Shown here: one piece after another, positions 3,001 to 30,000 of the stretch
How positions within the stretch are numbered: position 1 is the first letter of the stretch
How the letters are laid out: the number at the start of each line of letters is the position of its first letter
From: Fuerstiella sp.
GTDB lineage: Bacteria; Planctomycetota; Planctomycetia; Planctomycetales; Planctomycetaceae
Length of the DNA stretch: 64,000 nt
Assembly (NCBI GenBank): GCA_022843805.1
Contig: JALHMY010000003.1
Coordinates: 5,351 to 69,350, forward strand
Direction: 5' to 3'
Program-made: the position numbers and the translations under genes
Notes under the pieces: model-generated
The model's input: only the letters and a program-made list of their open reading frames with translations
Databases searched by the model: none
What the model was told of the DNA's origin: nothing

Positions 3001-6000
3001 ACTCCGGAGTTGATGTCTCCGGCACCGATGTCGGGATTCTGAAGGGTATACCAGCCCGACGCCGCATCAATGTTCTGGCCGACAGTCGTTGCGCTTTCCT
3101 GTTCAAGCACTGGCTGCGGCGAAAAGATGAATGCATCCCGCACATGTCCCTGGAGCGATACGTGAAGATCGTATGTGGCCCCGATCGGAATTCCGAAGAA
3201 TTCACGGTCCGAAATGCGTATGACATAGGTTCCAGGCTCAGTAATTAATGCCGCCAGTGATGCATCGGAGTCATTGTCCAGCCCGGTTGACGGATCCTGC
3301 AGTTCAATCACACCCGAAGCTCTGGTGCTGTTGTTGAGATTCCAGCCCCACCACGGATAGACGGGCCGGGCAGCGGCAAATCCACCGCCCGATTGTCTTT
3401 CAATGGAAATCGCTCCCAGCCAGTACACATTGCCACTGGTCTGGTCGATGTCCAGAAGGACTTTTAAACCACCGTCCGGAACAGTATTGACTGTGAACCG
3501 GAAAAAGTCAGATCGACCCTCGCCCGTTGCCTGGACAGTAATGTGGGGAATGGTGGTCGACTGAGAGATGCTCGGATTGCTGTAGTCGCTCCATTTGCCC
3601 AGGTCCAGATCCTGAGCGTTTCCAACATAGTCATTGTCAGCAATCTCCGACAACACGGACCCGCCTGAGGCTCCTGCACCAAAGCTTCCCTTTACGGACG
3701 TAGAGTTGTTGATTTCCAGAACCTGGCCGCCACCCACCGGTACAGTGGTTGTAACTTCCGTGACGTCGGTGCTGCCTTTCGACTGAGTGATCAGGATACC
3801 GGCGGTGTCATTGTCGATTATTGTGACGTCTACAGAATTTGCCCTGACGTTCAGATAATTCCCGGTGCCCTGAACAGCATTGATGATTCTGGCAAAGTGT
3901 TTCCCTTCCTTCACAGTATCGTTTGTTGCGGTGATCGTGACCAGCTGCGGAATTTTCCAGTCGTCCGGAGTAAACGTCAGAACTCCTGTTCCACCAATCT
4001 GCACCTGACTGTCAGAACTGACGGTCACGGTAACATTGTTGTCTGGCCGTGCATTCAATACCACGGAATATGTGTCCGTTGTTCCGCCTTCAACAACCTG
4101 AGTCGAGTCTCCTGATTTGGCGATCAGTACCCCAGGCCGATCATTATCGACAACCTCAACAACCATTCGGCGAATCTTCAGATTGTCGTACTCGCCACCG
4201 TCGCCGGCGAACAGACCTTCAATGGCTGTATGTCGAATCTCAAGGAATTCAGTGCCTTCCGCAACGGTGTCGTTAAACGCGGTCACGCTGACCGTCTGTG
4301 GAATAAACCAGTTTGTCTGATCGAAAATCAGAATCGTGCCGTTCTCTTCACCATTGACAGCAATCCCGTCAGCCAGCTGACCATTTCCCTTGCGGGTCGG
4401 CGTGACACTGACACGAACAGGTTCTGCCGGTGATCTAGTCAGTACCAGGGCATAGCTGGCCAGTGCCAGACTCTGCAGCGATGCGGAAATATCCTCAAAG
4501 ACTCTGAGGTTCAGATTTCCTGACAGGAGCTGCACACCAGCTTCTTCGTTGTCCATTACATTGACGGAGACATCCACTGGCGCGACGTTGTTATAAATCG
4601 GCACATGCTGGCCGTCACCGGTGGTGGTCACGACATGACGGATGATCCCGCTGTGTCCTCTCAGGTCATTGCTGACCACGCTGATCGCAGTCTCTTCACC
4701 CTGCGCGTTTTTATATCCTCCACCTACGTTAAACGTATCGCTGCCCTGTCCGCCGACAAGGCTTAGAACAACGTCATCACGTGTGCCAGCAATGTAGAAC
4801 GTGTCATTTCCTGCGAGTGCGTCCAGAACCAGCTTCTCGATTCCCTCGTACGAAATCGCCAGCCCTCCGCCGTAGATTCCATCTTCCGTAACGACAAAGT
4901 CCTCACCAAATTCCGTGCCCACCACAGTCAGAGTATCCAGCCCATCACCGCCCTGAATATTCACAGGCGCATTGACTGTATAGGAGATGAAGTCGGCACC
5001 CTGCCCTCCGTTAATGTTTGTGATCGGGGCATCGGGATCATCCGGATTGACACGCACGAATGCACGTACAAGGAAATTGTCGTTGTCCGCGTCACCGTAC
5101 AGGGACAATTCCGCAATATTGCGGTAAACCGTAAAGCTGTCGTCACCATCGCCGCCCCAAAGGCTGGCCGGAGCACTAATCCCGTTGCTCAGTGATCCGA
5201 GAGTCGTCGGGATCGTCGGAAAACGGTCAGCTTCAGCAATATTCGCCAGTTCGTCCCGCTCTGACTTGAAAATCTGCCCAATCTGGAACTTGTCATTGCC
5301 ACGACCACCAAAAATGTCCAGCGGAACACTGGTGTCATCAAGTACGAAGATGTCGTCACCTTCGTTACCCTTCACAACGATCGATTCCAGGTCGGCTGTA
5401 TACGCCAGTCGAATTGCACCACCGTTGTGGACAAAGTTGCCATACTGATCAATCTCCACGGCGGAAATGGAAACCGGACGGAACAGAAACAGATCGGCAA
5501 AGCGGCTTCCGTCCACTGTCAGCGCATCACTGTCCGTGCCACCGGCCACCAGCTCCACAATATTGATTGCCGCGTTACCTGTCCCCGTCATTCCCACGAA
5601 GTATTTATCAGAACCTTCTTCACCATGAAGGCTAAGGACTCCGGAGATTTCATTGGTTCCCGTCAGCTTTTTGCTGCTGTCGTGGTTAACGAAAATGTTA
5701 TCGTCGCCTGTGCCCGCGTTAATCGTGGTCGAACCGGCGGATCGGCGGACGATGATGTCATCGACACCGTCTCCGGCATTTACAGTCAGAGTCTCCTCGA
5801 CCGTTGACGTCAGCATAATCTGATCGGCACCATTTCCGGTATTCAGCGTCAGATGATCGAGGTATCTGGTTGGGCTGACCGTCACACTGTCGACAACAGC
5901 AGGTGTCGCATTCGCATTGATGTTCAGTACACCGGTTTCGAAGCCTGAGAACCACAGCCCATACTGATTCAGTCCGGAAACGACATCGTATCGCACGGAA

Positions 6001-9000
6001 TAGGCGGACGCTTCATCGCGGCTGGCCACATAAGCAGCGGGAACCACGACCTGCAGGTCTTCGACCCGGGTGATCGTCACTGTTTTAGGAACATACAGTC
6101 CGGCATCGTCCTGAATCTGCTCAATGTCCGCAGTGTGCGTATTGCCGTTCTTTTTCAGCGTAAGTCCATCAGCGACAGGCATCCGAATATCAGTACGCAG
6201 CTGCTGTTTAAATGCTGTTTCAATCAGACTTGTGACCGTGGCATCCGTGAAAGTCGCTGCAAGGAATGCACTATGCTGGCCCGATGTCAGCAACTGAAGT
6301 GAATACAGCGCATTCACATAAGCCGACCAGTTAGCAGCTGTCAGGTATACGCGATCCTGTTCAATCGCCTCAGCAGGTCCCAATACACTGCGAGCATCCA
6401 CAGCCACCATCGGCGAAATCGACTGATCCCTGTCATTCAGGCGACGCACCGCGACCGCTTCAAGCTTCTGGTTGCCGAGACTGTCCAGTCCGTAGAACGA
6501 CCAGGTGTAATACGATCGCTGGTAATTATCCATCGCCGCCACATAGGCACGCTCCATCCGAATCGGATCATATCCGTACTGTTGCCCGCTGATAGTTCCG
6601 TGAATCATATTTCCAGGGGCCGTGTTTCCCTTGTCACCATCGCGGAAGATCACCCACGAGATTTCGCGAAGAGTCCGAGTTTCGCCGCTGGTGTCGTTAT
6701 CCGGGAACATTCGGTTCAGATCGTCCGCGTCATCCCATGGGTCGAATCGTGACGCATAGGGAGTACCGCTGGAACGGTTGAACCAGTCTTTTCCATCTGT
6801 GTACTCTTCTTCCTCCCAGACCTTCTGATTGAACTTGTAGGTTGTTATACGCGAGGCAACCTGTGGCGTTGTCTGCTCATAAACCCTCAATCCGGGGTCG
6901 GCCGTCCATGTGAATCCCTGTGCAGTTCGCAAATCGCTGCTGACACTCGCAAGCGTGAGGAAGTCACGCAGCTGTTTCAGACTGGATTCCACGCTGATGG
7001 CTGAAACACTGCCATCCCCGGTCAGCTCTCTCAATGCAGTGGAGTTCAGCAATGCATCGAGCGCATCCACGGAGAACGACGCAGTGCTCTGTCCGTTCGA
7101 CAGTCCCGCCAGAATTTTTCCTCGAAGTACGAAGGCCTGCAGGTCCGTTTTCAGCCGCTGCTGCACAGCAGTCGACAGTCCGGTCAGGCCAGTTACAGCA
7201 GAATCCAGAGCGTTCAGCGAGGTCGTGATGCTGTAAGTGTTGGTGACGGTGTCCACGGAAACCGACACGGTGGCACTGTTCACCGTATTGTTGACGAGCT
7301 TCTTCAGAACGCCAATCTGTGTTTCCTTGTCTGCTCGTTCCAGAGCACCCTGCACATCGTCGTGAGAAATGCGGGGATCCAGCGTCAGTGCACTCAGATT
7401 GTAAGTGTAATCAGCCAGATCAAGCACCGTTTCACCCAGCGACATCGTAATGCCGTCGCTGTCGGCCGCATTGATTGTGAAGGTATCCCCAAAGGTTTGC
7501 CCCTGGACCGTCTCCTGCGGACCGCCGGCAATTCTGACGACACCGGCAATTCTGCTAATGTCAAAGCTGGCTGGCATGATCTTTGTTGCCTCACGCACAG
7601 GCAGCTGATCGAATCGATACGAAGCGGATCCGGAAACCGTTTCCGTGTCGAAGTTCTGCTCCACATTGATGATATTGTCCGGCGCAGGAGCGGCGATATC
7701 ATAAAAGAGTGTGATCAGGTCCCAGAACATACGCTGGCCCTGACCGGAGGAACTCCAGGTGTCGGTCCAGACATCCTTTTCCCCGGAAATGTGCGGCATC
7801 CATCCGCCCGCCGGAATCTGATGAGTATAAAGATCGCCCAGGTAAAGGTCGGGTTCCCAGCCCCAGTTCGCAATTCGAGCACTGCCGAGGCCTGTCCCCT
7901 GTCGCACCTGATCCGCCCGGATCATGTCGCCATAGATCGTGTAGGCAACCGCCGGGCGCAAATATTCATTCAGCAGAATCTGGTCAAGTGACCTTCCGTT
8001 GGCGGAGAACCGATTGCTGGCACTCACAACGCCGGTGAGTGTTTCGAAATCGAGCACTGCCGGCATCTGAGGCGCATAACTGTTCAGAAGTGCTGGATAA
8101 AGATAACTCGAATACACCGTCCTTCTGCCAAGATTCAGGAATCCATAACGGTACGAGTACGAGCTGACTGTCTGCATCCACCACCGACCACCATTGGTGT
8201 TCTGCAGCTGCTGTTCAAACGCATTGACGTTCGACAGCAGATCCTCGCGTTCTTCCCGATAGGCCGCCCAGCCGCGTGTCAAAAGAGTCCAGATGTTGCT
8301 GAGCGGTACAATATTCGACGAAGATGCCGCCAGTTCAATGGCCTGAGCATACAGCTTCAGGGCGACCGCAAGGTTTGCTTCCAGCAGGTTCCAGTGTTCT
8401 CTGGAAATCGTTACGTTACTCAGATCACGATCACTGATGTCGGATTTCACCCACTTCTTATAAAAGTCTCTCCACGCCTGCTGTTTTTCCACAGTCGTCA
8501 TTGAGAGCCGATTGAACGACAGATTGTTGTAGTTGATCGTCTGATTTTTAAACCGCTCCTTCACCACGTTCTGCTCGACCGTGTAGACAGCACTCGACTT
8601 CGGATAAGTCACAGTGAAAGTCTTTTCCTCCCCGCCGATGATGACCTGATCGTTTCCTGTTCCGGTGTTGATCAGCAGGCTCAGAGATGACTTCAGACCG
8701 TACAGATAGACGATGTCGTCACCGGAGCCGGTGACGAGCGCCAGTCGTTCAATACCGTCAATGTTCTCCAGCTTCAGTCCGGCGCCATACAGGTATTGCC
8801 GATTGTCGGCGTCTGTGAAGATGTAGAAAGTATCAGCCAGTGCGGTTCCTGCAACAACCACTGTGTCAAAGCCGCTGCCCCCATAAATGGCGACTCGGTT
8901 GTTCTCCAGATAGTTAATCAGAATATTGGATTCGTCTGCCTCAATATTATTATTAACATCGCCTGCCCCGGCAGTAATCTCGGCTCCCCCAAGTGAACTC

Positions 9001-12000
9001 GATGTTGGATTGTTATCCGGTCCCTGAGCCAGCAGCTGTGCTTTCAGAAAGAACATGTCGTCGCCAGCTTCACCGAACAGTTCCAGCACGCCCACGTTAT
9101 GATTGACTTCAAAGTAGTCGTCACCACGACCGCCAAGGAAGACGGCGTTGTAACTCACTCCAGGCGTGACACCGTCTTCACCGTCAATAGCTTCCACTGA
9201 CTGCTGATTGACAGTCACAGTCCTTGTTTTGATGACTCGGCCAATGACAAAATTGTCGTCGCCCTGATCACCTGAAACAACGATCGCGGCCATGGTGTCG
9301 TCCACGATGAACGTATCGGCGCCCTGACCACCACGGATATCCACCAGTTCTGCTGTGCGGTCGTAGAAGACTCGCTGATAGGTCAGCGGATTCGTTACCG
9401 TTCCCGACTGTCTTGTCGTGGCGGCAGCATCGGCAATATCCATTGGCCGTGTGATGACCGACGTATTCTGAGTGCCAATTGGCAGGTAGTTACCTTTGGT
9501 GTCCTTGTCCGCAACAATCAAAGTAACACGGAAAGGATCACGATTCGTGCCAGCGCCTGTGACAGTCGCCGAGGTGATCGTCGACAACGCCTCAAGCGCA
9601 GCCTCAATCTGTGATGCCGTCGAATTGTGATTCAGCTGTGTTGTCTGCTGCCCATTGTAGACCAGCTGGTAACTTCCGGTTTTCCCGGTCAATACGTTAA
9701 ATATCTGAGTCTCGTAGCCGGGACGCTCAAACATCGCGTCAATATCAGGTTTTCCGTCCAGCAGCCCGGGAACACCCTGCGGAAGTCGAGTGACCGTGGC
9801 CCGGCTGACCCGGGCTTCATAGCTTTGGCTGGTCGTGCCGATTCGGAACAGCTTTCCTTCCGCATTCGCCGCGTTCGGATTGGTGTGTTCCAGCTCGATT
9901 TTCCACAACATCCCCTGACCGCTTCCTGATCGTGTTACGACAACGCTGCTGAACAATGGGACACTGTTCGCTGTCAGCGCAAGAAGCGCGTTACGCACAT
10001 CCGACTCTGATGCGTTCTCGGCAAGACTGGAAGTCGTGAATCCGTGATACGTCAGCGCGAAGTTGCCGGAACCTTTGCGCTCAATTTCCTGGTGAGACGT
10101 ATCGGCATCCAGATGCAGAGTGTCGTCATCCTCTCCGCCGGTGATCTGAACACTGTCAGAATCCGTGCTTCCGGTGCCCGTATCCGTGACATAGACAGCA
10201 GACTGCAGATTGACTGTGCCCGTTAGTGTGAGCACATAGTTGTCACTGCCTTCGGTTCCGTCCAGCCAGGCATTCTTCGTGAATGCCGTTACGGCGAAGT
10301 TATTGATTCCGGCTCCGCCAAAGATCTCAAACTTCTCAAAAACTCCAATCCCTTTGGTGAGCGGATGATCCGGGTCAGAAGTTTCCACCTCACTTACGGG
10401 GTTCATAAGCGACGGATCGATCAGATCGCGTTCCAGACCAGTTACCACAAACTCCAGGTCTGAAATGCGGAAGTTCAGATTGCGAACTTCCTGCAGAGTA
10501 TCTGTCCCCGAGATATCAAGAAACGCGTCAACTCCGGCGCCTCCGGTGACAATGTCATTCCCGGCCCCGGAATCGATGATGTCAGCACGACTTGTGCCAA
10601 CGATGCGGTCGTTTCCGGTACCGCCGAGCAGCTGCAGTTTGTCAACGGCATGGGCTGAAACGATATCCTGAAGCACCACATTCAGATCAGGATCTGCTTC
10701 AAGTTTCGGAAGGAAGCCTGCTACCAGGCGGTCATCGCCCCCACTTCCGTCCACTGAAATCTCATCGTGATCAACCTGATTCGCGGGGTCGTCCAGATCC
10801 AGACCCCGGATTTTAATGACGACTTTTCGAGTGTTATTGAGCGTGCCATCAGAATTCAGGCGGCGGTGACTGATCTGCAGCGTATCTGTTTTCGTCTCAG
10901 TTACCGGGTTCTGTTCGCTGTCGAGTTGTCCGGTGAGAAGGACTTCGTGGCCGATCAGGAAGTAATCACGCAGTGCTGAACCGCTGATACTAACCTGATC
11001 CACGTCCTGGTCTGTCACCCAGGACGGATCTGTAAAGAAGTCCGTCTTCCCGGTTTGTTCCAGTATTCCGTCGCCATTGAGGTCGGCCCATACCGGACGC
11101 TCAACAAGTCGCGGACCTTCCTGTTCAATCGTCATGTGCGGAGAAATGTACTTGTCGTCTGACGCACCCGATTCGCTGCTTCCAAAAATCGCCAGTTCGA
11201 CCGGAATCACCTGCCCCTGAGCGTCCAGACCACCACCTCGAGTCATTTGCTCCCAGACACCGAGTTCGCTCCTCTTCTCAAGCGACGACATGGTCTCGAT
11301 CGGATTGTTTGCCAGCGAATGGAAGTCACCATAGTCAATCGTCACGATCAGCGGATTCGACGGATCATATCCCTCAATCGTGATCTGATATCCCAGTGTC
11401 GCAAGTTGTGAATCGTCAATCCGGACCCGAGTACCGGGATTCAGCTGATTAAGCAGTGTCTGCAAACTTGCCAGTGTTTGCGGATCGCCGAGCGGGAGTG
11501 CTCCGGGCTGGAATCCCCGCGAGTTGCCATTGAAGAAGAATCGTACAAATTCAAGATCTGCAGCAATGCTGATACGTCCCAGTGTCACTGTTGAAACGTC
11601 GAGAGGCGAAATCAACTCGCCGCTGACGAACTCAAGCGAGTGCAGGTTTCCGGAATCCGGGATGCTCACGACGAAATTTCCGGAAGAGTACACGACGCTG
11701 GCACCTGACAATCCTGTTAACGTTCGGAGCCGGGTCTGCAGAAGTGCTGCCTGTCCGGAAGTGCTGACCGAATCGATGTCGGTGGACCGTAATGCCACGG
11801 TCTGGCCGTTGTACCTGAATGCACTGCCTTCAACGATCTGGCGTCCCGGGACCGCCTGGGAAGTTAACGTGCCGTCCATAAAGGCATCGTCGAAATCATC
11901 TCCACTGATGATCTTTAGTTCGGCCGTCGCAGCGTCTTCAAAGTAGATGAAGAAGTAATCAGAATCGTAACCCACTTCTGCATCGGCCAGCCCGTTCAGT

Positions 12001-15000
12001 GTTCGGATTTTCGACTGCAGCAATGCAGCCTGCTGGGCTCTGGTGCCGACAGTAATATCTGCAGATGTCAGAATAACAGACTGGTCACTAAAGAACAGCT
12101 GCGTGCCGGTTACAACATCTGCTGTTGCGATCTGAATGCCTGGGGTAACGGCGACATCCGGCGTAACATCTCCATAACTGCCGAAATCGTATTCAACGGT
12201 GACTGGAGTGTCAGAGTTGTAACCTGAGAATCGGATGTTCCAGGGACTTCCCTCAACTCCCGTGCCCAGCACAGAAACCGTGCCATTATTCAAACTATTG
12301 AGATCCGTCACCAGAGCGTTTCGGATGGCAGTCGCGTCTCCGGCAAGAGAGATGACTTTTGTCGTCTGTCCCTTGCGGAATGTGACTGCGCTGAGGCGCA
12401 GCGGCAGTACCGTTGATCCGGTGGTGACGATGGTCGGACCAGCCTGTTCGCGTCCGGAACCATCGGTCCGCACATAAATAACCGGGGCAGGCACCGGGAA
12501 TGAGACGATGTAATGACCTGTGCCTGCGGATTCACCTTCAGCCCATGACACGGTTACAAGATTCAGCAGCTGGATGGTGCGCAGCTTCGTCTGGAGAATA
12601 CCGGCCTGCGCCTCTGGCGTGCCTGCGATGTCAGCTGCCGCCAGAGTGATTGACTGTCCCGAATAAGTCAGAACAGTTCCGTCAGTAATGACGACTTCCG
12701 GAATTGCCTGGAGATCCGTTCCCAGAAACTCGTTTGGTACGGCATTCTCTGTGCTACCGCCTGTGACGAGGTATTGAACGGGCTGCGACGCAGGCACTGT
12801 TACGCCAAAATATCCGCCATCAGCGGCATTCCAGGTCACCACGATATTTCGAAACGAATCGCTCAGTGCCCGGAATTTCGTCTGCAGAGTTGCAGCCTGA
12901 ACACTGGTGTCCGCCGAAATATCTGCCGGCGCCAGAGTAAAGCTCAATGTGTCATCAACAAACTGAGTTCCAGCGACTACAGCAGCGCCAGGGATTCGCT
13001 GCGTTGCTGTTGAATAATTCTCTGAGACCTGAAGCGGGACCTTCATTGCCTGAACTGCGACAACAGATTCCAGGACAAAATAGTTTCCATACTGATCCGT
13101 GTCCGCATCCAGAAAGACGATATTCCAGGGATCCTGAATGGCCGTCTGCAGGAGTGACGCTTCAATGAATGTGGAATTATCCTCATAAAGCATTCGCTGC
13201 GGATTCTCTGTCGGGAAGCTGACTTCGAATTCGTTCGACTCTTCGAGCCATGCGACCGTTACGTTCGTCAGGTCTCCGCCACCTGCTCTGAGTGCCGCCT
13301 GCAGATTTGTTGCCTGTACAGTCGGATCGTCGCTGATATCCGTCGCTGACAGAGTTACTGTCACGCTGGCGTATTTCAGAACCCGTTCACTCGTGATGAT
13401 TTCGGCCGACAGCAGCTGTTTCTGCGGATTCGGAATATTCAGGATTCGGCCACTTCCCGTGACCCAGACATCTCGAATGCTGTCCATAGATTCGAGCGCA
13501 GCTTCGACTTCGGCTGCGGTCATACCTGCCAGCAGATCGACGGTGTCGCTGCCATAGCGGACAGTCAGGTAACTTTGCCACTCCGCCGGAAGAATTGACT
13601 GAGTTGCAGGCGAAGCAGTTCGCGACGTCCTTTGAAACGAGAATGGAAGATTCTGCGAGTCCATTCCCTGGCTGGTCTGAATGACGCTCGACTGACTGAA
13701 CGTTTCGCTGCGGATTCGCAGGAACGCTCCTTCAGCGTCCGTTTCGGCCACGACCAGATGAATCAACCATGGACTTTGGGCTGTGCCCAGCCCGGTGACA
13801 TCCACTCTCTGAATCCCGGACAGAGATTCCAGCGCTGTTCTGACGTCAGCAGCGGTGATCGTGGATGTGCTGATATCCACTCCACTGTTGCCGTAGAATA
13901 CTGTGATGGCGGAATTTTCAGCGCGTACAAGCGTCTGCACTGAATTTTCCGGACTCTGGCTTACAGTGTTCACCGGTTGCGGAGAATTAACAGTCTCCTC
14001 AACCATATACAGCATTTGCTCAAATTCCTGCCCTGGCTGAATCGACGTAAATGTGGCCGTCCAGTTGCCCGCAGTGCCGGTTACGCTGACGGTCGCACCT
14101 TCAAGATTTCCTTCCAGAACATTAAAGGCCGTATTTACCTGGTCGAGCGTCATGACCGTTGTCAGAGGCAGACGGATACGTCCATACGATACAACGCCCC
14201 CTGATGCTCCATCAAAATTGATAGTCTGAATCGAATTCTGCTCATTAACGGACCCCGCAATAAATGGGAGCGACATCTGATGGGTCGGCATAGCGGAGAT
14301 CGAATAGTAAGCATCGTCTGAATCTCTCGCCGCGTCGGTCAGCACGATGACCCATGGTGCGGTCGACTCTGACCCCGATTCCACGGAAGCTGCTGTCACG
14401 TTCGAGAGCGCCTCCAGCGCCGCTTCAACGGCGGCCGGACCGTCCTGCAGATCAATCACAGACGTTGTCTGACCATCGTATGTCAGAGTAATTCGCGATG
14501 CACCGGCCGGGAGCGACAGCAGCTGCCTGCTGTTGACTGTCGCGTCCAGTGTCTGAGAAACTGCAGTCGTGCGCGTGGCCTTCTCCGAACTGTCCAGGAC
14601 TCCACCACCGGAGACCAGTTCCAGAGCGTAATATTGCCCATTCAGTTTCTCTGCATCAGAGAAATTGAATGCCCATGGATCCGAAAGTGTTCCCGTGCCG
14701 CTCACCGCGACAGAGTCAACCCCCGCGAGCAGCTGCTCCATCCGCGCCTTCAGAGTCGTCGCCGTATCGGTGGACTTAACCACAATACCTTCGTTGCCGT
14801 ACCACAGAATCGCGTCTTTTGTTTCGCTGATATCCCATGAATTCAGGTAGACAAACTGAACCTGACGGCCTTCAATCATCGTCGCGGCCGTTGCCTTCTC
14901 AATCAGCACCGGCGCGTCAGCAGTCGCCGGATTTCCATCGTCCTGATAAAGGTAAACGCCGTTGACATCGGAAAGGCGGTAGAATCGCTGAGCAACCCGT

Positions 15001-18000
15001 GTGTCGTCACGCTGGGTGAGAGCTCCAATGTACGACTGAACCTGATAGTGCTGTGCAAACTGCAGATATCGTCCGCTGCTGTCGGTGGTGGCACCGGTGA
15101 TCGTGATCATCCATGGATCCGCCAGAGTGCCGGATCCTGTAATACCAACAGCGCTGACCTGATCCAGCGACTCAAGTGCTGATTTGATCTCCGCGGCCGT
15201 CATTCCGGACCGAATTTCGACGGAGTTGCCCTTCAGTAACTGATTGTTAACGATACTGTCAGGTATCCGGCCATAATCCGTACCAAATTCGTCATAGCCG
15301 TAATACAGAGTCACCCGATCGAGCCCGTCAGCCAGGCTGACAGACTGAGTCTGATTAACGTTTCCGCTGACGTCCGCGGGAAGTGTGATATCGCTAAGCC
15401 GTGGAGAACCATCGGAATTAAACAGATAAGTGCCATTTTCCGCCAGATCGTAGCGGTAGAAGTACTGCCCTTCGCGCAGCCCTGTCCCGCTGCCGAGAAC
15501 CCCGTCAGGCTTCTCGTCAGTCACACCGTAACTGGTCGGGAAGACCTGGTGACTGCCGCTGACATCACGCTGAACGGTCCACATTTTGGCCAGGTCAGAA
15601 CCCAGTTGCAGGTCTACCGACTGAATATCCGTATCCAGCAGGTCGGTGACACTGATGGTGTCGCGCCCGGTGCGACCATCAATACTGACGTCCTCAACCC
15701 CGTCCAGCAGCATGGTGTTGGCGTCGATCGTCAGAAGAGCATCACCAGCCGCCGGAGTATCAGAGGCTTCTTCAAGACGAATCGTGTTGTTTCCATCAGA
15801 CTGAGCACTCACTGTCACCTTCAGCTCATCCCGCAGACCATCGCCGCCAGATATGGTTAGGTTTCCAGACTGGCTGAAGGCGGTGTAATCCCACACGATG
15901 GAGTCATCTCCCGCTCCCCCGTCAACGTCGACTGCACCGGATCCTGCTTCAATTCGATCGTTGTCCTCTTCGCCCCGAATTGTGTTGAATCCAGTTCCTC
16001 CGATCAGCTGATCGAAGCCCTGGCCTCCGCGAATTGTATCGCTGCCGTCACCGCCATCAATCACATCACCGTGAAATGCCCGAACGGTGAAGTTGCTGTT
16101 CGTCAGCACAACCAGCTGGCCATTACCCTGTGCATCGGGGGCCGACGTAATCGGACGGCCCAGTTTATCGTAGTAGTCAAACGGAGTGCCGTTTGCCCGA
16201 TAGATCTCGGACACTCGAAGTTCTGCCCCGGGTGTCCACACCGACCCGGTGACCGGAGAGTAAGCGGCAACGTCACGAATTGTCAGTTTTGATGTATCGG
16301 CTGGATAAACGCGTGAACCAAATTCGTCGCCACCATCCAGTTCGTCATCGCCACCATTGCCCACGATAATGTCGAAACCATCCAGACTGGCATTTGTCGT
16401 GACCGAGTCATCATGCCCGCCAAAAATGCGGTCAGGTCCGTCACCCCCGGTGAGTTTGTCATCACCGATTCCGCCCTCAATCGTGACTCCGCTGTAGTCA
16501 GTGTAGATCCCCGTAACTTTGACGCGGTCGTTGCCGGCCTGGCCCCTGAGTCGATACGCGGTTGCTGGTGTGTCGGCGCCCGGTGCCAGCAATGACGAAT
16601 CGATGTTGATATAGTCGTCACCGTCCCCACCGAGAATCACAACAGACGTAAGTCCGACGGTACCATTGTTTTCTGTGTCTCCCGTGGAGTTGACCGTGTC
16701 ATTGCCGCCACCGAGAGTAAAGTCGAGGTGTTCGATGACCCCATCGATTTTCCTCAGATCGTAGACGTCATTTCCATTGGTGCCGACGACCTTCAGTGTG
16801 CTCACTTCACTGTCCAGGTACACAGCCACCCGCTGACCGTTACTAACAATGATTGCCTTCTGCCCGGCGTGATTCGAACGGTAACCGGCCAGCTTGTCCC
16901 GCAGATTCGTCTCTTCGTCCCGAGACGAAAATTCGGGATCAAAGTATCCATCAGTCAGGAGTTTTGCCAGAGTCAGATCGTCATCAATCGGCAGAGCTTC
17001 GACTTTATAGGAGTGTCGTGCCGGTGCTCCATCGGTCATATAGACAGAAGTCGGATCATTGGCATTATTCAGGTACTGCAGCGTAAGAGTCGTACCGCTC
17101 AGCTGCGAAATGCTGTTTGGTGCATCATGCACACATTCCCAGTCGAACTTAGCGATGACTTCATCCACGAATCGTTCGCTTGCTTCGAACAGCGTAATCG
17201 TGCTGAAGCCCAGATCGATACCGATCCACAGGAATGCTTCCAGAAAGACGGACAGCTGGCCATTCACATCAAAGAGGCATTCCACGCCATGAGTGAGCCG
17301 ATCGACCAGCTCACTTCCATATAACTTCCCATCTCCGACTGGCAGATCGTTCAGAATCTGTGTTTCGAAGTCGTTCAGATCGAAGTTAACATTGGCCTGC
17401 AGACCCCCGCGAACTCCAGCCTCAACCAGCCCGCCGATTCCAAGGCTGACACTGGCACCAATCTTTGCCGTCAGACCCAGTTCGGGCCGGTCGCTGGCAG
17501 TGTTCTCCTGCCCATGGTCATCCAGATAAAACCCGTTGAAAATCCTCCACGATTCTGCAGGATCAAAATCTTCATCCATCCACTGCCGCAAACCGCGAGT
17601 ATCAAATCCGAAGTCAAAGTTCGTGAAGGCTCCCACACTGCCGAACAGGCCCGCATTCAGGCCCGGGAAAATCGGGAAACTGCGGCTGTATTCGAAGACC
17701 AGATTCAGGTCCGGCAGGTCATACCAGAACAGATCAACCTCACCTCGCCCCATCACAAAGTCCAGCAGCGACATTGGGTTCTCCAGCACAGGAATGCTGA
17801 AGTTCTTTCCGGGCGCTCGTTTTTTGGATTTGGTGGCAGAACTGGTTGTCAGAGAATTGCTGTCAAGTCCCTTCTGATCGGGCCCCTTCAGCAGTGCCTT
17901 CTGATTGCCGGTCAAATTTGCATCATTCTTCTGAGAACCGCTCACATCGGCGCTGCTCAGTTCAGCGCTGGGATTCTTCAGAGTCGATTCTGTCAGATTA

Positions 18001-21000
18001 AATGTGCCGAAATTAATCGTTCCGGCCGATGCAAGATCATTGATGTTCTCAAGAAATTTGATCGTACTGTCAATGACCTGCAGTACTTTGGTCATTGTCT
18101 CAACGGTCTTCGCCGGCAGACGCAGTCTGGCAATGTCAATGAATCGAATCGGCGGACTTGCAATTCCACCAAGCGGAATCTCGAACAGCAGCAGATCGAC
18201 GACTGGCTTCAGCGGGGTCACGATGTCGTGAATTGTGCTGAGCGTCGTGCCCAGGAAACTGCGGAACATACTTCCGACGTCAAGTGTCACGTTCTCCAGA
18301 ATGACTTCCGGACTGCCAAAGTCGATCGTTGCCTTTCCACTGGTTGACAGCTGCACATTGCCCAGCATCTGAGCATAGTGAATGGTCGTCGAAATCGACG
18401 GAAGGAAGTTGCCGGCGATGGATTCCACTGATGCTGCCAGATGAGCTTCTGCCCAGGCTGATGCATTCAGGGCCAGAGTAACTCCTTCGCCCACCTTCCA
18501 TTTGCCATCATTGTTGGCATCCTGAATATTCAGACCAAAATGACCCCACAGGCCCGTGTCGTTACCTTCCGCGGTCGACTCCGTGAACTGCATTTTCAGA
18601 AAGCCGAGCGTACCGGTTGCTGTGGAACCGTTTCCAAGTGTCGCAGACACGTCAAGTGACAGTTCTTCCCCGGATTCATTGATTCCGGTCGTGTCGATAA
18701 AGAACCCCATTTGAGGAATCGGCCCTGCGCTGACGTTACCGATTCCCAGCCCAATCCCCATCAGATAATCGATATGAGCCAGCAGTTTTGCGTCAACGTC
18801 GAGGTTGACTCCCGGGATTCCGGCGGAGAAGTCAATCGGGAGTTGTCCGTCAACCAGAGTTCCCCCAAACATCAGGTTAAATGTAATCAGTCCGCTCGCC
18901 GAGAACGTCAGCTGAATATCTTCGAAGCTCGTGGGAACCCTGACGAGTAGCTTTCCTGATGAGTCGTACTGCTTGGCCCCGAATTCATCCAGTTGCGGTA
19001 CGACAAAGGCAAACAGAGATCCGGAAACGCCATTCGTTTTCGCACCAGTCATCTCATTCAGCGCATCGAATCCGTTGAACAACTCCTGACGAATTTTGTT
19101 CAGAACGCTGTCAATAATGCTGGAGCTTCCCTGATCCTGCAGCCATTTCCCAAGGCCCTGACTGTAATTTGAGCCAACCTTCTTTCCGAGTACGCTGCTG
19201 CGAATATCGCGCAGGGTATTGGCGAGACTGTCGAACGGGCTGCCACCAATGACCGGCAGTTCGATCGAATCGATGCCCTTTGCAATAGTGTCAACGCCGT
19301 CAAAGAAGCCTTCCATGCCCCTCAGCACGTTTCCAGCATTGTCGATATAGGCGATGAATGCCTGTACCGCATCAAAGCTCATTGAGATGCGTGGCAGTGA
19401 ATAGCTGTAGGTTGTCTGCAGAACAAAGGTTTCATCAACAGAAAATCCGACATCGGCGTGCAGAACGTTGTCCGCCACACCGTTTCCATCCCGGTCCGCC
19501 GTTGTACCTCCGAGTGGCAGAGACGTAGTCGGGAAGAACATCGGAAGATCAATCGATGCGTTGCCGGACAGTTCCGCCTGAAACGCCGATCGCAGAGACA
19601 TGGGAGAGATTCGTCCGTCGCCGTCTGCGTCCGCTGCCGGATCTCCAAAGTCCGCTTTGAATCCGGCCTGAATTGCAGCCGTACCGTTCACGATGTACAA
19701 GCCGAGCGGCGGCAGATTCACGGGCCCAATGGAAGGAATATCAATCGCCAGACTCGCGTCAATGTCTGAGGCAATACCTGACGCAGAGGCGACGATGCCG
19801 GTATCCGCGTCCACTACGAATGAGGGATCAAAGACATTGCTCAGATCAAATCCAAATCCCAGATGCAGGTCCACACTGGCTGCGACCTGAACCGGCGCTG
19901 TCAGGCTGATGTCCAGGAATTGAGTGGGGTCAAAACCCAGCCATTGCTGCAAATTCAGCTGCTTTGCGTCGAGTTCCAGATTGTACGTGCGGCTGATCGC
20001 CTGTTCGAAGTCCAGATCAAATTCGAATACTCCGCCGCTGTACGACATCGTCACCAGGTTGACGCCGGCAGCCAGCCCAAAGAACGTTCTCAGTTCTTCA
20101 TTAAGCTGGTCCTGCAGCTGACCAATGTTCCTGGCAGAATCACGCACTGTGTGGATGGCGTTTGCAAAACCGCCGGCAAAGCTGACTGCCCCGTCGCCCA
20201 GCATATCTGCCAGACTGACTCCCAGCATCGGGATGTCGTTGTACAGCTCGCCGTCGCGAAGACGAATCAGACTCAGATTTCCCGTGGTCTGCGACGCCCC
20301 ATTCTTCAGGGTCACCCCTGCCTGAACATCAGCCGTCAGGCGACTGATTGCCACGTCGTCGGCGTCGTAAGTGGCGCTCAGCCGATAGTGATCAATGTCG
20401 TATGTCTGCACCTCTGCGGTATTCGGTCCCGTGGCCGACTCAATACCCCAGACATTCAACCCGCTGTGCAACCATTCGGTCAGTCGCAGTCGATTGCCAT
20501 CGGTATCTTCGACAATCTTCGAATTCTGAACGCTGCCATTGACGACAGCTGTATAACCGGATGTCAGCAGAGCCGCGGTGCCCCAGACTTCGCTGTAGAC
20601 TTTCAGCTGTCCGCCGGTAAATTCACCGCTGGCAGCATCAACAGATCCACCGACCAGCGTTCCCAGCAGCTGGGTATCTGTTCCCACCAGATCATCCGCC
20701 ACGTCCTCAAGCGCTGCCAGGATCGTGTCAAGTGACAGACCACTGAACTGCAGCAAATCCGACATGCCAGTGATGCTGATCGTCGACGGCAGGCTGGTCA
20801 GGAAGCTGGTCAGTGAGGCTCCGGGCTGAATCAGTGTGCTGGTCGCGGTGATGTAGCCAACTCCATCACTGATTCCATCCAGCAAACCGCTCCATTCGAC
20901 TGGCAGAACAATCGTAAACTGACTGTCGTCACCCAGTGACACGTCCAGATTCTGGAGAAGGTCAAACGCGCTGCCACCACTTTGCAGTTCTGTAAACGTC

Positions 21001-24000
21001 AGTTTCTGGTCAAACCCAAGTCCGGCCGAGATGCCCAGCGAAATGATTGCATCGTTTGACTGTAACCCCAGTGGCCCCAGATTGATGCCGAAATCCATCG
21101 TCTTGATCAGAGAGCCATCTGCTGTTTCTGACGGAAGATCTTCAGCGACCACAATGGTTGTCGTATCGGTGTAGATGTTATACGTGGCTGACGTCACGGT
21201 ATAGATGGCATTGTTTTCAGTGGAACCGGCAACGGCGATTCGATCTCCGGCCACAAAGTGCCCGTTTGCCGAATTCAGCTGCCCGTTGGGTGTCGTCCAG
21301 TTGCCTGCGATCTGCAATGAATTTGACAGCACGTCAACACCAAGTATCGCGTGCTGAGTTTCTCCGAATTCCACTGAAGCGCTGACATTCGGGTCCAGCA
21401 CATAAAACCGACCATCACCGTCGATCCCGAATGCAAATTCCAGCTGGACTCCGGCTGTCAGCTGCAGTGGCTGACTTTGAGTGGTCGAAAGACCGAAGCT
21501 GAAAGGCAGTTCAATGTCGATTCCATAGTCCGAGAGGTCCAGGGAGAGTGTACTCAGATCGAGCACAATCGACTTCGAATAACTGGCGAGATCGATTGTG
21601 GCAAAATATTCCTGGACACCCGGAGATGTCGCGATCTGAATTCCGGGAAGATCCTGCAGCGCCAGCAGCATGCCATTGGTGTCAGGCGATGTGGCACTGC
21701 CGAAATAACCGGTGATCGCGTCCGAAATGTCGTCCACGCGGTCATTCACCGTCGCACCGAAATCTGCTGTATCCACTCCAAGCATGCTCACCAGACTAAT
21801 GTCGGTAAACGGGATGGTTGTCGCATTGGTCAGAAAATCGTCAATTCGCTCACCCAGATTCTCCGCCCAGTCACCAAATGCATCGAGACCGGCTGCCAGT
21901 TTATCCTCAGATGACAGACCCGTTTCAATGTGTCCGACAGTCGGATTGAGCCGAACCCCCGTCTTCAGACTGTGATTCATCAGATCAGATGAATCAGGTG
22001 TTTCAGGATGATCAATACCGGCGACGTGCCCCAGCTCATGCATCAGAACGGTTAGCAGATCGATGCCGACAGGCGGACTGCTGGCAAATTCACTGTCACC
22101 GGATGCTCCGGTAAAGTTTGTATCCACGTACCAGCCTGCACCTGCCGCATTGTTGTCCAGCGTCAGGTCATATTTACTGGTCGCGGAGTTCCATACAACG
22201 CCGGCGATGGTGGTTCCGAGCTCCGAGATCTGAATATTAATGGCGCCCGCACTGATATCCAGACGGTCGGGCAACAGGGCGTTCCAGCGTGCAAGTGCTT
22301 CGGTCGCCAGTCCCGTAACCTGCGACACGTTTGTCAGTGAAACTCCACTGTTTCCGGAACCTCCGTCTGCCAGTACCACCGGACCACCGAGCAGTTTCTT
22401 TCCAAACAGTTCATTAATTGCGCCGGCTGAGCTGCTGGTTGCCTCTTTGATTCTGAATGCGCCAAACGCCGTGACACGGTTGTCACCCCATGTAAAGATT
22501 GTCGCACCGTGTTCCGAAGCTCGCGTTACCTTGCCACTGACTTTTGTAAAGTCGAGCACGTCGTCCCCGCCACCGCCATACACAAGGTTCCTGCCACTGT
22601 TATCGGTGAAGTAGAACGTATTGGCTCCGGAATCGCCCATCAGGACGTCATTGAATCGGGTGCCCTCAATGCCTTCAATGTTGCTGAGCGAAACAGTGGA
22701 TGCCGAACTGGTAAACTTCACCAGACCAGCTCCATCTCCGTTTCCAGGGTCAGCTGTTGCTGACAACACTGTGTCCGTGATCGATGCATCAAACGTCACA
22801 TCGAACGCTTCTGTGCCTGCGTTCCACACCACGGTCACTTTGCCTTCGCCCACGCTGGCAAGCTGTTCAAGCTCATGCTGTATGGCCTCACTGCTGGCAT
22901 TGAACGGAATACGAGCCGTGGTGTTGCCCGAATGAGTCAGTGTCAGCAGACCGGCGCTGGCATCGATTGAGATCGATGTCCCGGAGATGGTCACCGATCC
23001 GACTGTCAGACCGGTGTGAGCAACACCCGCTGCAAGATCAATTACCATTCTCTGCGGTGAAGCTTCAAAGATGACAGTGTCGTCTTCATCCCCGCCGTCA
23101 ACAACGTCACTGCCGCCGTGGCCAAGATTGAAGGTGTTCTTCTCGTCGTTACCGCGGAGCAAATCCTTCAAAGCCGTGCCTGTCGCCGAACCAAGACCGT
23201 CAACAGCATTGTTTTCCGGAGCGAATGAGCCGAGTGTTCCGGAAGGCACCCATAAATCCAGACCGGCCAGCCGACTGCCCAGTACGGCCGAGGCCCGTCC
23301 CCAGTTGACATTCACACCCGGGAACGTTCCGAGCACCGGAAGGGGAGCTTCTGTACCTGGTATTCCCCAGGACAGTCCTGCGGTACCGTCAACAACAATG
23401 CCGTCATACGTGACATTGTCGACAACTGTTGAGCCGGACGGTGTGTAGTCGCTGTAGTCGAAATGAATGCTGCCCCCGTCCCCGGCTGCCACGTAACCAT
23501 CCAGACGTGCGTCTCCATGGAACTTGAAGGTGTTCTTCCCTTTTCCTCCGATGATGTTTTCGATGCCCGTTGCAATCACATAGTTGAGGCCAAAATCATC
23601 AAATGAAACTGCCCCTCCCAGAAGGTCGGCGAATCGTTCTATAATCTGTGTACCAGCGTCATTCCGCGCAAGCACAAGCGTCATTCCGACCGACAGCGGC
23701 ATCGGATGACCCAGGGCATTCAGTCGACTCTGCCAGTCCCCAATATTGTCTGTCGACAAAGTGTAGATATCAAATGTGTTGTCCCCGCTGACAGCATTGA
23801 AGTCCAGCGTGTCGAATCCAAAATTCAGGTCGACGCCGGCGTAGACTGAAGGCGGTTCCACCACAGCGGCAACCCCCCAAAGACCGCTGAAACGGTACGT
23901 ATCCCCGCCCGTCATGCCGGACATCAGATGAATGCCAGGTGCGATCACCGGTTCGCCGATTGACAACTGCCCTTCCAGCAGACTTGAAGTCAGTGTGTCT

Positions 24001-27000
24001 GTAATAAACTTACCAATATCCTGCACGGTTGAGCCATCAAAGCGACCATCACTGGTTCGGCCATCGCCAAACAGGCTGCTCAGAATATTGCCACCCACCT
24101 CGAATACGTTCTTCCCCAGTGAGAAACTGCCGTCACCAAACAGAGATGACTTCGAGGCAGCTGTGGCTTTTTGTGCGAGCAGCGCTTCATAGATCGCCAC
24201 GTTGGAGCCAAGCAGCAGATTGAGTCCGCCACCGTAAGTCACATTCGACATATTTTTCACCACGCCGGTGAAGCCCGCAGCCCCTGGCGTGTTGCCAAAT
24301 CGACCATGCAGCAGATCTCCAACACTGACATCCTGTGCCAGCTGAGAAGCGTTCGCAGTCAGCATTCCGGACAGTGGCTGATCCTTTCCGCCAGCACCAC
24401 TGAACGTGACGTACCAGGTACTGGCGTCGGTTCCATTGACCTGAGCAAGTCCAGGAGTCGCGGTGAGACTGTCAAATGCGGCCTGGATTGAGGCTGTCTG
24501 GTAGCTGGTGTCGCCGGATGTCGCTCCATTGTACGCCAGCTGGAAACTGTTGCCGGCTTTGGCAATATCCAGCCGAGCCAGTTTCTGAATTTCCGCGACC
24601 GCCCGCTGTCCTTCGCTAACTGTCACGATCGTGGCCGATCGATCTGCTGAATGTCGCTGAACAAGAGAAGATGAATCAATCGAAAGTTTCTCAATTCCCT
24701 TAGTTGAATCGGGGCTGACGAATTCAACGATAAACTCCACTTCGTCGGCATCCGTGTCTCCCGCGACGCTGATCAGTGCCCTGGCGGCTCCGATGACGGA
24801 CCACGCTGTCACGTTGACGGTTGTGACTTTGCTCAGCGATTCGATTGCCGATTTAATGCGGGCAGCGACGGCCAGAGCATCAATGGATCCGACCGGCGAA
24901 ACAGGCGTGGACAGCAACTCAATCGGCTCTGTTTTTTCGCCGCCGTAGCTGACGACAAAGGAACCTCCGTCGGCTTTGTTCAGTGAGAACGTCTGAAGGC
25001 TGTTCTCACTGAAACTTCCATCGCGACGTGTCAATACTCCAAACGTCCCGCCCGTCGGCTGCTGCGCGACCGTCATCGCTGCAATATTGCCTGACAGAAG
25101 GTATTCAATATCCCATCCACCCAGTGGATTGACATTCACAAACACAGCATTGGTGCCCAGAACACCCGCTGCATTGATTGCCGCCTGAATACTGGCAGCT
25201 GTGTCCTGAGCCTGTGCACTCAGAGTGATTGCTGCCGTCGTTTTCTGAACACTGCTCACCGGATCGGTAATGCTCAGAGAAAATGTTCCGCTGGCGGGAA
25301 CTCCCTGCACACTATTTGTCAGCGTCAGCCGCTGAACCTCGTGCACAACACTCTCCATGCGAACGTTCACCGGACCGACCGGTGAATGACTGACAGCGGA
25401 AGGCTCCGCGACCGAGCGATTGCTCAGCACAAAGGGGCGCACCTTACCGGCCGTTGCCGGAAGGCTGAAAGTGATCGTCAGACCGGTGGCAAGGTTACCA
25501 CTAACCGAGACTGCTCCGGCCCCAATTGCGGCGTTCAACTGAGTTTCAACGTCTGTCGCGAGCGAGGCACTTGAAATACCAGCAACGATGGAACCCGTCA
25601 GGCTGGCCGTCCCGGCTCGCTCGACGTTGTATCGCAATTCGACAAACCCGGTCGTGGCAGAACCGAACGTCAGTTTCTGAATCTGACTACCATCCTGAGC
25701 ATACTGTGTCGTGTTAATCACCGCAGCGGCAACCGGCGTGTCGTTACTGCCGTCCAGTACATCAATCTTTACGTTCCCCCGAGGAAACGAGATATTGAAC
25801 ACGTTAGTGCCGGCAGGTGTCACTGAGGCCGCGCCCAGCGAAGCAGTCAGCATGTTCGCCGACACAATCTTATCAAGTGCAGCTCTGATGCCTGCCGCTG
25901 TTTTTGCTGTTGAAGCTGTCGTAACGATTGTTCCGGCAGCCGTCGTCAGTCGAAGGCGAATACTGCTGACCGCACTCGCTGCGCTCAGGTCCACAACTGT
26001 GGTCATGGACTGGGGAGTGCCCAGTGCCGTCACGTTCTTTGCTGAGAGTTCAGTCAGGCTGCGAAGTTCATCACCAACAACCTCAGTCAGAGTCAGACTG
26101 GCGTAGTCGATACCGGACTGAAGAAAGATGATATCCCAGGCGCTGACTGTTGATCCGTTGTCGTCGACAATTGAAATGGGTCGAACGGTGACACCCTGAG
26201 TCGGCAGTTCATCCAGCTGCACGTCCAGCGCAGACTGGATTCGTGTGGCGATTTCCGCTGCTGTGGCTTTGGTGATAATCTGTTGAGCCCCGGTGCCGCC
26301 CTGAACATGGTGCAGACTGATCGATGAGGTTGTGAATGCAGTTCCATCTGCTTTTCGTCCGCTCAGTGTGAACGAGCCAATGCTCGCTTCGCTGATGACC
26401 AGTCTCTGTACTTCAGAGCCGTTATGAGCATCGGTGACAGTTTGAGTATTCACCGCACCATTGTTGATCAGATGCGTCAGGTTAACGACTGTTGGCGTCG
26501 AAGCCCGGCTGTCCGACATGTCCAACGTGTTGATGGTGCTGATATTGGGGATATCCAGCGTCACAGCACCAGTCAGCGATTCGTAATCGAGGAACGATGT
26601 GAGCGGTCGCAGCCCGGTCTGTCCGATGATTGTCCCGCTGAACGCCGTGTTTCCAACGATTTTGAAATTGTTTTCGTTCAGTCCGCCGATGATCGTCGTG
26701 TTGGCATCCACATTGGTGATCACGACCTTGTCATAACGGATTTCGCCCCAGTAAGAATTCCACAGGTCAGACACATAGCTGTCGCCAAACACCTGCGGCA
26801 GATTGTAGACCTTTTCAATTGTCAGCTGAGTATCTCCGGCAGCTCCCTCGCGCAGTACTTCCGCATCGGCACCAGGCAGCAAATCGCCGGATCCATCTGC
26901 CTTGATGACATTCAGTAATGCGACGTTCTGCAAAGCGCTAAAAGTAACTTCAAACTGACCAGCCGTCAGTAATGCCGATTTGACTGTGACTGTGATGCCA

Positions 27001-30000
27001 TCGAGGCTCGTTCCGGTAAACGCACTGTTCAGCGCATTCTGAATGGCAGTGGCCGTAATGCTGTCTTTGGTTCCAACGGTGATATCGCCGGTCGTCACGC
27101 CGTCAATGCGAAGGCGGAACTTAGTGCCAGCCGGTGAACTGGCTGGCGTCAGCTGAACCTGCTGAATTTCCTGTTTACCCGAATTCTCAAACGTGAACTC
27201 CATTGCACGACTGACGTTACTAAAATCCAGCGTCAGCTTGTGACCATTCGCAGTCAGCACGCCGGAGTCAATTTTCAGTTCACCAAAGTCACGATACGCC
27301 GCTGGAAGCAGTGCCTGTTTGGCCACTTTTCCAATGGAATTGATGATCTCATTGCCGAAATACAGCGTGTTATCTGAATTCGAAACAACGATTGTTTCGA
27401 TGGCGTCCAGTCCGCCTCCGCTTTGACCGTCCTGAATGGTCGTCACCGTGGAAGTGACCGCTCCCGCTGTCGTCAGACCTGCGGCATCGACAGTGATATC
27501 TGCAACATCCTTATCTTCCGGACCGCTAAACGTGAGATCAAAAGTCTGACTTCCGGCGTTGCCGGTTCCCTTCACCGACACTTTGAATTTAGAAACACTG
27601 AACGTGCTTTGACGTACTGCTTCCACAGCCGCATCAATGGCCGCTGCAGTGACGGCCGGATCGTTATCCCATGGTATTGCGGCCGTCTGGCGGGAACCAA
27701 TGCTCAGTACAAAGGAGCCTCCAGTGACACCCGACAATGCGATTCGCTGAACTTCCGCACCAGATTGTCCCTGTTGCAGATTGAACGAACCGGTCGCATA
27801 GGTCAGTGCGGGCGAAACAATGCTGACAGCCGATACATTCACGGCTGCCGGGCTGGTGAACTCAACCTTAAAAATTCCCAGTCCGGTCGTGACAACGGTC
27901 GCAGCAGCTCCCGTCGCATCGATCGCCGACTTGATTCGTGCAGCGGTCGTCTGAGGATTGCTGTCCACCTGAATGCTCAGGGTGGACCTGGGAGATCCAT
28001 TATTGAAGGACAGCTCAAAACTGCCGCCACTGGCCATGCCCAGATTAAACTGCCAGATCGCATTCTTTCCGGCTCCACCCGTCTGGATTTGAACAGGCGC
28101 GGCCGGACTATCCCATACGAGCCCTGTAGTATTCAGTGTCAGCTGGGCAACATCAGTCCGGGCCGGCTTCAGGAACTCGATGTTAAATGTACTGACTGAT
28201 CCAACGATGACCTTAACAGAATCGGCACCCATGGCGTTGTTTAACGCGGCCTGAATATTCAGAGCGGTTGCTGCGTCATCAGCACCAACAGTAACTGTGC
28301 GACTAAAGTTCAGACTGTTCGCGACATCGGCAAGACTCAGAATAAACGTAGAGCCAATGCGAGCGCCAGCCAGAGAGATGGCCTGCTGCTCATTAATGCT
28401 GCCAGCTTTCACAACATTCAGCACATCGCCGCCACTAAAGCTGCCGGTAACATTATTGAAGCCGGTGAAATATCCCGGCCGGTTCTGCAGCGTGAGTGTG
28501 CCGTTGCCGGCAATGAGCCTTCCGTTGCTGAAGACAAAGCTCAGATTACTGGTCACCTGCGAAAGGTCGATCGTGTCACTGCCCCCTCCGGTTCCTTCAA
28601 TGACCGTTTCGCTGCCCCAGCCGTTCAGCAGGATATAAGTGTCATCATTCAAGCCCCCAATCAGCGTATCTGTCCCGGCGCCGCCCGTCAGAATATCTTT
28701 GCCAGTTCCGCCCTGCAGGTTATCGTCGCCTGCGCCACCGTCCAGACGATCATCGCCCGCATCGCCTTTGATCGTATCTGTGCCGCTGCCACCCAGAAGA
28801 TTGTCATTGCCCGCGCCTCCGCTGAGCGAATTTGCTCCTTCACCGCCGCTGATGCTGTCATTGCCCGGGCCGCCGGAGAGTATGTCGTTGCCCGCCGCCC
28901 CCGCGAGAATATCATCGCCCGCATCGCCACTGATGGTGGAATTCCCGGCGCCCGTATAGATCGTGTCGCGACCCGTGCCGCCGTTTGCCGTGCTTCCGCC
29001 GATCAGCACCATTTCCTTTTGTGCCGGGCCGGCAAGAATACTGTGCAGTGAATCAAACCCATTCAGACCGAACGGTGCCTCTCCTGCCTGAGTGGTTGTG
29101 ACAACCGCCGATCCACCGGGGAGCGTCTGGTCCGCGGCTGTTCTCAGTAATGCGGAATCGACCGTGAACTGGGGATGATTGGCCTGAATGGCGAATGTAA
29201 TCGTCCATTGAGTGTTTCCGTTGGCGACAACGGAGAATAACCCCGGACCCGCCAGTGCATTCAATGCAGTCTGAATATTATCGCGGGTTGCTGCACCGGT
29301 TGCTCCAAACAATATCGGCGCACTGCGGAGACTTCCCAGTGATAATGTGAAGCTGCCGCTGGCAGCATTATTAATTGTCAGCGTCTGAATTTCGTTCTTT
29401 GCTGCGGGCGCAGCGGAAAGATTCAGGCCAGTCGCCACTTTGGCCGTCGTATCAACGACAATCGGGACCGTCCCGCTGTAGTCGCCATAGTCCAGAACGT
29501 TCCTGCCACCCACACCAGCAGAAATCGTTCCTCTTAGCGCATTTTCGCTGTTAACTCGCCATGTATTAATTCCCTTTCCGCCCACAATACTGGCAATGCC
29601 GGTGGCTTTGACCTCATACGTGTGGGTCTTTGCGGAATTACCGCTCCCCTTCAGAACTCGCGCGGTGACCGTCACACTTCCGCCAGCTTCCAGCACGAAA
29701 TCCAGATTATGAGTGACACTGCTGAAGTCCAGAGTTCCTTTGGTGTTCCCGGATGCAGTGTCATCGACAATGAATGTCGTTTTTGGCTTTGCATCTGTTG
29801 ATGGAAGAAAGCCCCAGTCATCATGGAAGCGGTAAAGATTGGTCTGGTTTCCGCCAATCAGCTTTTCAATGTAGCGAGCGTTCTCCACCTTATTCCATGA
29901 CGAAGTTGTGCCGACAATCTGTACTCCCGCAGGACCAGATGTTGCCACGCTGGAATAGATATTTGCAGTGATCGCATAGGGCGCTGGACGGTTAAAGCTG

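Follow-up and report, generated by a model that had tools for sequence, protein, structure and literature searches.

Matrixins (M10A), represented by the MMPs and karilysin, are the closest relatives in sequence and fold of the protease domain described here. In the matrixin signature, the third His of the HExxHxxGxxH zinc-binding consensus is followed by a Ser and, at a spacing of eight residues, by an 'ALMYP'-type Met-turn. Matrixins also have an S-loop with structural Zn/Ca sites and a cysteine-switch propeptide (PRCGxPD). The signature of the serralysins (M10B) is 'HP' after the third His ligand; these enzymes have a Tyr two residues after the Met, and RTX repeats follow their metzincin domain. 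Snapalysin (M7) uses HExxHxxGxxD.

Protease domains embedded in very large proteins form a second point of reference. The CPD (C80) of MARTX and large clostridial toxins is an established protease inside a very large protein that cuts its own carrier, the CPD fold carrying out autoprocessing in both groups of toxins (PMC13323088). In the giant proteins of Omnitrophota, which exceed 10,000 aa, embedded protease domains have been proposed to split the chain (bioRxiv 10.1101/2023.11.21.568195). Whether giant bacterial proteins act as one working chain or as cut pieces is a general question that bears on the protein analysed here, in which a metzincin domain lies far inside a chain of more than 11,600 residues. 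We consider it probable that this domain, aa 3121–3290, is a complete and active zinc endopeptidase, most likely one that stays tethered and cuts other extracellular proteins.

A zinc-protease motif inside a giant open reading frame

The window, by which we mean the whole 64,000-nucleotide stretch of Fuerstiella sp. DNA analysed, contains a giant open reading frame (ORF) on its minus strand (1..31742). From its ATG at 31742 it runs for 10,580 codons without a stop to position 1, where the window edge truncates the gene. In a Logan assembly (SRR28154521 contig, locus L002, 13322–21395), the giant gene was called at 11,654 aa, a call that the end of the contig cuts in turn. The complete protein is therefore longer than the part in the window, and exceeds 11,600 residues. 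Genes neighbouring the ORF include DUF1501, VWA, LpxB, ZnuA, and flagellin. A scan of 10 ORFs on the side of the start codon found no secretion or export gene; the far end of the giant gene lies outside the window.

Recognisable features are few along this chain. An N-terminal 'LENRTLLSG' motif (31593..31619, minus strand; aa 42–50) gives a weak, sub-threshold match to Pfam Planc_extracel (13.2 bits versus a cutoff of 25.5). RTX calcium-binding nonapeptide repeats occupy 28545..29003 (minus strand; aa ~914–1066), with more RTX-like runs near aa 7040–7072. Beyond these repeats and an N-terminal DUF4347 domain, no other Pfam domain was found in the giant protein apart from a marginal Peptidase_M10 match. 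Cysteines number just three in 10,580 aa: Cys222, Cys4822, and Cys4870 (codons at 31077–31079, 17277–17279, and 17133–17135, minus strand). The RTX repeats, the scarcity of Cys, and relatives with dockerin or Calx-beta domains suggest that the protein is extracellular or secreted. No internal repeats were detected at blastp E≤1e-3 across the 10,580 residues; in this the protein is unlike typical giant adhesins, which consist of many similar repeats.

The zinc-binding consensus HELGHVAGIDH lies at 22008..22040 (minus strand; aa 3235–3245) and comprises His3235, the catalytic-type Glu3236, His3239, Gly3242, and His3245, followed by Pro3246. A 'DLM' segment at 21978..21986 (minus strand) contains the presumed Met-turn methionine, Met3255 (window 21980..21978), exactly 10 residues past His3245. 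The initial annotation had described a full HExxHxxGxxH site with a Met about 10 residues downstream, some 3,200 residues from the N-terminus. Both statements hold: the motif and Met span aa 3235–3255 on the minus strand, and HELGHVAGIDH begins at aa 3235 counted from the ATG at 31742. By analogy with solved metzincins, the catalytic zinc would be bound by His3235, His3239, and His3245, with Glu3236 as general base and Met3255 packed beneath the metal site.

We weighed whether such a motif could have arisen by chance within a region that is not a protease, a reading favoured by the weak Pfam score described below and by nothing else. HExxH occurs once in all 10,580 residues of the ORF, the expected number of HExxHxxGxxH motifs in a protein of the same composition and length is 4.5e-5, and HExxHxxGxx[H/D] arose in eight of 20,000 residue shuffles. 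The region also has a confidently predicted MMP-like fold and belongs to a family, thousands strong, with the same conserved residues. The shuffles, predicted fold, and family conservation together refute a chance origin, to which we assign a negligible probability.

Predicted fold and comparison with known metzincins

The MMP-like metzincin catalytic domain, supported by an AlphaFold2 model and Foldseek, covers 21873..22382 (minus strand; aa 3121–3290, ~170 residues). The model, built from a 46-member family alignment, has a mean pLDDT of 90.5 and a pTM of 0.88. It begins with strand 1 and backing helix A (VSQVTGLATEALARWNALL; 22272..22328, minus strand), which carries the family-conserved A..RW, and continues through three strands and a short fifth strand to active-site helix B with HELGH. 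The family signature AAGAGWYVD (22122..22148, minus strand) lies between the sheet and helix B. After helix B come the DLM Met segment, the stretch GVRLNP (21942..21959, minus strand) with its family-conserved Gly (94%) and Arg (99%), and two short C-terminal helices (SSEDKLAAGLDAFGDW; 21867..21914, minus strand) that are the likely counterpart of metzincin helix C. The predicted order of elements is that of metzincins. The initial annotation had taken the region for a minimal catalytic module. Since the mapped first strand and the C-terminal helices bring the domain to ~170 aa, comparable in size to the catalytic domain of an MMP, we reject that description.

Structural comparison, proposed in the initial annotation as a check on the metzincin assignment, supported a metzincin-like fold. 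All 50 of the best Foldseek matches in the PDB were MMP or karilysin catalytic domains, the top match being MMP-11 (1hv5) at E=1.7e-4 and probability 1.0, with a TM-score of only ~0.5. PDB sequence searches pointed the same way: the single domain sequence found karilysin (E=0.002), and the 46-member family profile found karilysin at E=1.9e-7 and then many MMPs. Against Pfam Peptidase_M10 (PF00413), the isolated domain scored 25.4–26.5 bits, marginally above the cutoff of 24, with a match covering the motif helix alone (profile positions 102–137 of 159); scanned as part of a 3,600-aa segment, it fell below the cutoff at 21.5 bits. In NCBIfam, the module matched myxosortase-dependent metalloprotease, fragilysin, and archaemetzincin, all far below threshold.

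With the matrixins, the domain shares HExxHxxGxxH and a downstream Met, the order of strands and helices, and overall size. It differs from them at several defining positions. Strands 3 and 4 (48–53 and 58–65 in the model) are separated by just four residues, so there is no S-loop and the structural Zn/Ca sites of MMPs are absent. The cysteine-switch propeptide is also missing, no Cys being nearby. In the sequence HP...DLMNH, the third His is followed by Pro rather than Ser, and the Met lies at a spacing of 10 rather than the eight of MMPs and karilysin. The loops preceding helix A and helix B are longer than in MMPs or karilysin.

Serralysins resemble the domain in having 'HP' after the third His and in placing a metzincin domain in an RTX-repeat protein. 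However, the NCBIfam model Zn_serralysin aligns to the RTX repeats alone (aa 968–1066) and not to the module, and Asn-His follows Met3255 where serralysins have their Tyr. The RTX repeats precede the domain here, and the host protein is >20 times larger. The likeness to snapalysin lies in the third ligand: its Asp is shared by 60% of the family, but the window copy has His, Pfam M7 matches are weak and rare in the family, and the fold search gave MMPs and not snapalysin. Because several M10A-defining features are lacking, as are a serralysin-model match and the Tyr after the Met, we assign the domain to an M10-like metzincin family that lies outside both M10A and M10B.

A large family and its giant-type members

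An exhaustive HMMER profile search of 1.84 billion representative proteins returned 7,877 clusters, defined at 50% identity, at E≤1e-3 and 5,296 at E≤1e-10. The family became visible by this search; a word-indexed homologue search with the single module gave only three matches. Likewise, scanning genomes with a single sequence gave no matches, and an alignment query found loci in Planctomycetota, Alpha- and Gammaproteobacteria, Cyanobacteria, and Verrucomicrobia. Matches are full-length with respect to the module, and the proteins that contain them range from 130 to >5,000 residues. The family is very large, mostly unnamed or unannotated, and richest in Planctomycetota.

Domains of this type are well known, and a few relatives already carry names, from 'hypothetical protein' (Planctomycetaceae, Gemmataceae) to 'matrixin family metalloprotease' (Nitrospira). 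A precomputed PF00413 match exists for about half of the annotated relatives. When 46 family members were searched individually, 44 matched Peptidase_M10 and two weakly matched Pfam Peptidase_M7. Our literature searches found no paper on this planctomycetal M10-like family. At least 7,877 clusters of MMP-like domains are thus barely covered by current family models, and none has been studied.

Across 162 near-full-length family domains, the first His is conserved in 98%, the Glu in 98%, the second His in 96%, and the Gly in 94%, and the third zinc ligand is Asp in 60% and His in 32%. The Met corresponding to Met3255 is present in 97% and the Arg after the Met segment in 99%, and the Trp and Asp of the 'GWFVD' signature in 100% and 99%. 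The conservation of His, Glu, and Met that the initial annotation had proposed as a check was thus found at 92–98% (third ligand His or Asp), and the site is intact in all five giant-type orthologues found, one of them gammaproteobacterial.

In this family the module ends, or sits inside, long extracellular-type proteins. It is usually near the C-terminus, with 114 of 157 sampled domains lying ≤150 residues from the protein end. Some proteins have two or four copies, including tandem pairs, and P0004 (3,056 aa) has four. Some copies lack catalytic residues, for example with MEEQGR instead of MHEQGH, and degenerate distant copies include one in L009, where the Met is replaced by Leu, and one in L025, where the third ligand is lost. 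In P0003 (265 aa), the module, with Asp as third zinc ligand, is followed by a dockerin domain (PF00404). Short 'stand-alone' members of 103–155 aa were considered as autonomous mini-enzymes; they mostly look like truncated gene calls, and for that reason we do not count them as evidence for a mini-enzyme.

Several relatives are of the giant type. P0016 (5,323 aa, cut) and the window protein share an N-terminus, MSLSQW...EMLENRTLLSGDP; P0016 aligns with the window protein over its full length at 55–63% identity and retains all catalytic residues in its module (3325–3451). Four further loci share the downstream context: a Planctomycetaceae MAG (L004, 64% identity), a Planctomyces MAG (L005, 60%), a Pirellulales MAG (L006, 48%), and the gammaproteobacterium Ca. 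Litorirhabdus singularis (L007, 44%). The pattern HExGHxxGxxH...[LI]M is kept in these four and in a metagenomic locus (L001). The reading frame is open across all ~21 kb fetched for L005 and L007. L007 comes from isolate IMCC14734 (NZ_SHNN01000001.1, 415831–436769); its 44% identity extends over the module and downstream region, DUF4347 lies upstream, and the frame is open for 20.9 kb. This relative suggests, from sequence comparison, that the giant gene has spread across phyla. At about 12904–13069 of L004, the orthologous gene switches reading frame. The switch may come from misassembly; alternatively, it may mark a genuine frameshift or the boundary of a gene.

These alignments bear on whether the domain might be a pseudo-protease, a structural or binding module that has kept the fold and perhaps the metal and lost catalysis. 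The module shows no special constraint relative to its flanks in the P0016 alignment: it is 58% identical versus 64% across the aligned region, at the 23rd percentile of 130-aa windows, and is no better conserved than its surroundings. This pattern would suit such a module, and the degenerate copies (MEEQGR, and those of L009 and L025) show that catalytic residues have been lost elsewhere in the family. Against this, the Glu and all ligands are intact in the window copy and in the five giant-type orthologues from two phyla, and the Glu is conserved in 98% of the family. We therefore regard loss of catalysis in the window copy as quite improbable, and the domain as probably an active protease.

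Probable tethered action, possible self-cleavage, and a second protease-type domain

The giant protein has another protease-type domain near its N-terminus. DUF4347 lies at 30906..31385 (minus strand; aa 120–279; PF14252, E=1.3e-49) and contains the motifs SHG (His179) and YGC (Cys222). Among 64 DUF4347 sequences, the SHG His is nearly invariant (~90% conserved) and the YGC Cys invariant. A model of the domain (pLDDT 89.6) found the DUF4347 protein Tce1 (9qpe) as best Foldseek match, followed by legumain, caspases, and the TcdA CPD. On this model, we accordingly predict a caspase/legumain/toxin-CPD-like fold for DUF4347 of the giant protein, in which the His/Cys pair is conserved. Tce1 is a T6SS effector; a recent description presents it as a putative cysteine protease, with a dyad that can be superposed on the TcdB dyad (PMC13323088). 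Both DUF4347 and the metzincin module are present in P0004, P0005, P0016, L005, L007, L009, and L010.

We considered whether the metzincin domain cuts its own carrier, in cis or between copies, autoprocessing the giant precursor into mature fragments in the manner of a polyprotein. Its internal position is conserved, ~3,000–3,300 residues past DUF4347 in the window protein, P0016, and L005, and at least ~3,150 residues past it in L007, where the DUF4347 sequence is cut by the locus end. For protease domains of other giant proteins, the same role has been suggested (bioRxiv 10.1101/2023.11.21.568195). Those Omnitrophota domains are similarly embedded in bacterial proteins of >10,000 aa, but they are C39 and S8 peptidase domains, which belong to other protease clans, and come from another phylum; splitting is likewise a proposal there. 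Several observations speak against self-cleavage by the metzincin. The mostly C-terminal placement of the module across the family (114 of 157), in proteins of all sizes, is what one would expect of a general catalytic module and not of a device dedicated to self-cleavage, and no cleavage site was identified in the giant protein. DUF4347, being CPD-like, is moreover a precedent-backed rival for that role within the same chain (PMC13323088). The CPD uses Cys and His, belongs to clan CD, and differs in fold and chemistry from the metzincin module; its counterpart here is DUF4347. The giant protein has two protease-type domains, and by analogy with the toxins the precedent for autoprocessing belongs to DUF4347 and not to the metzincin. 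We judge autoprocessing by the metzincin unlikely.

Cutting of its own carrier is less likely than a role in trans for the metzincin. Tethered to a very large protein that is secreted or surface-bound, the domain would act on other extracellular proteins; we favour such tethered action because the module behaves family-wide as a general catalytic unit on many different long proteins.

A broader and more speculative picture, which we also hold to be unlikely, is a giant secreted 'polyprotein' family that spans Planctomycetota and Gammaproteobacteria, has a fixed layout, and carries two proteases that cut the chain after export. The layout would start with the N-terminal CPD-like DUF4347, continue with RTX repeats and then the metzincin, ~3,000–3,300 residues further on, and end with >7,000 residues of repeat-free, unannotated sequence. 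If this picture were true, two built-in proteases would yield several functional products from one chain. As two protease-type domains are recognisable, the question of processing is directly testable in this protein. Two things above all make the locus interesting: the recurrent two-protease layout, seen here in a protein of >11,600 residues, and how large the unstudied family is.

Two stretches outside the protease domains gave no matches in Pfam and PDB sequence searches of aa 3291–3700 and 4641–4920, and both are well conserved. Directly after the metzincin, aa 3291–3500 (window 21243–21872, minus strand) contain many blocks that are invariant in all giant-type relatives, among them TIPFTD, SIVLDLS.LS.DLS, and LPF.FGLSTTQSQP.QLTAGV. 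Further on, conservation within the aligned giant protein is highest at aa 4641–4920 (window 16983–17822, minus strand), which, judging from sequence, may be an unrecognised functional domain. Cys4822 and Cys4870, 48 residues apart, fall where conservation with the orthologue is greatest (82–85% identity).
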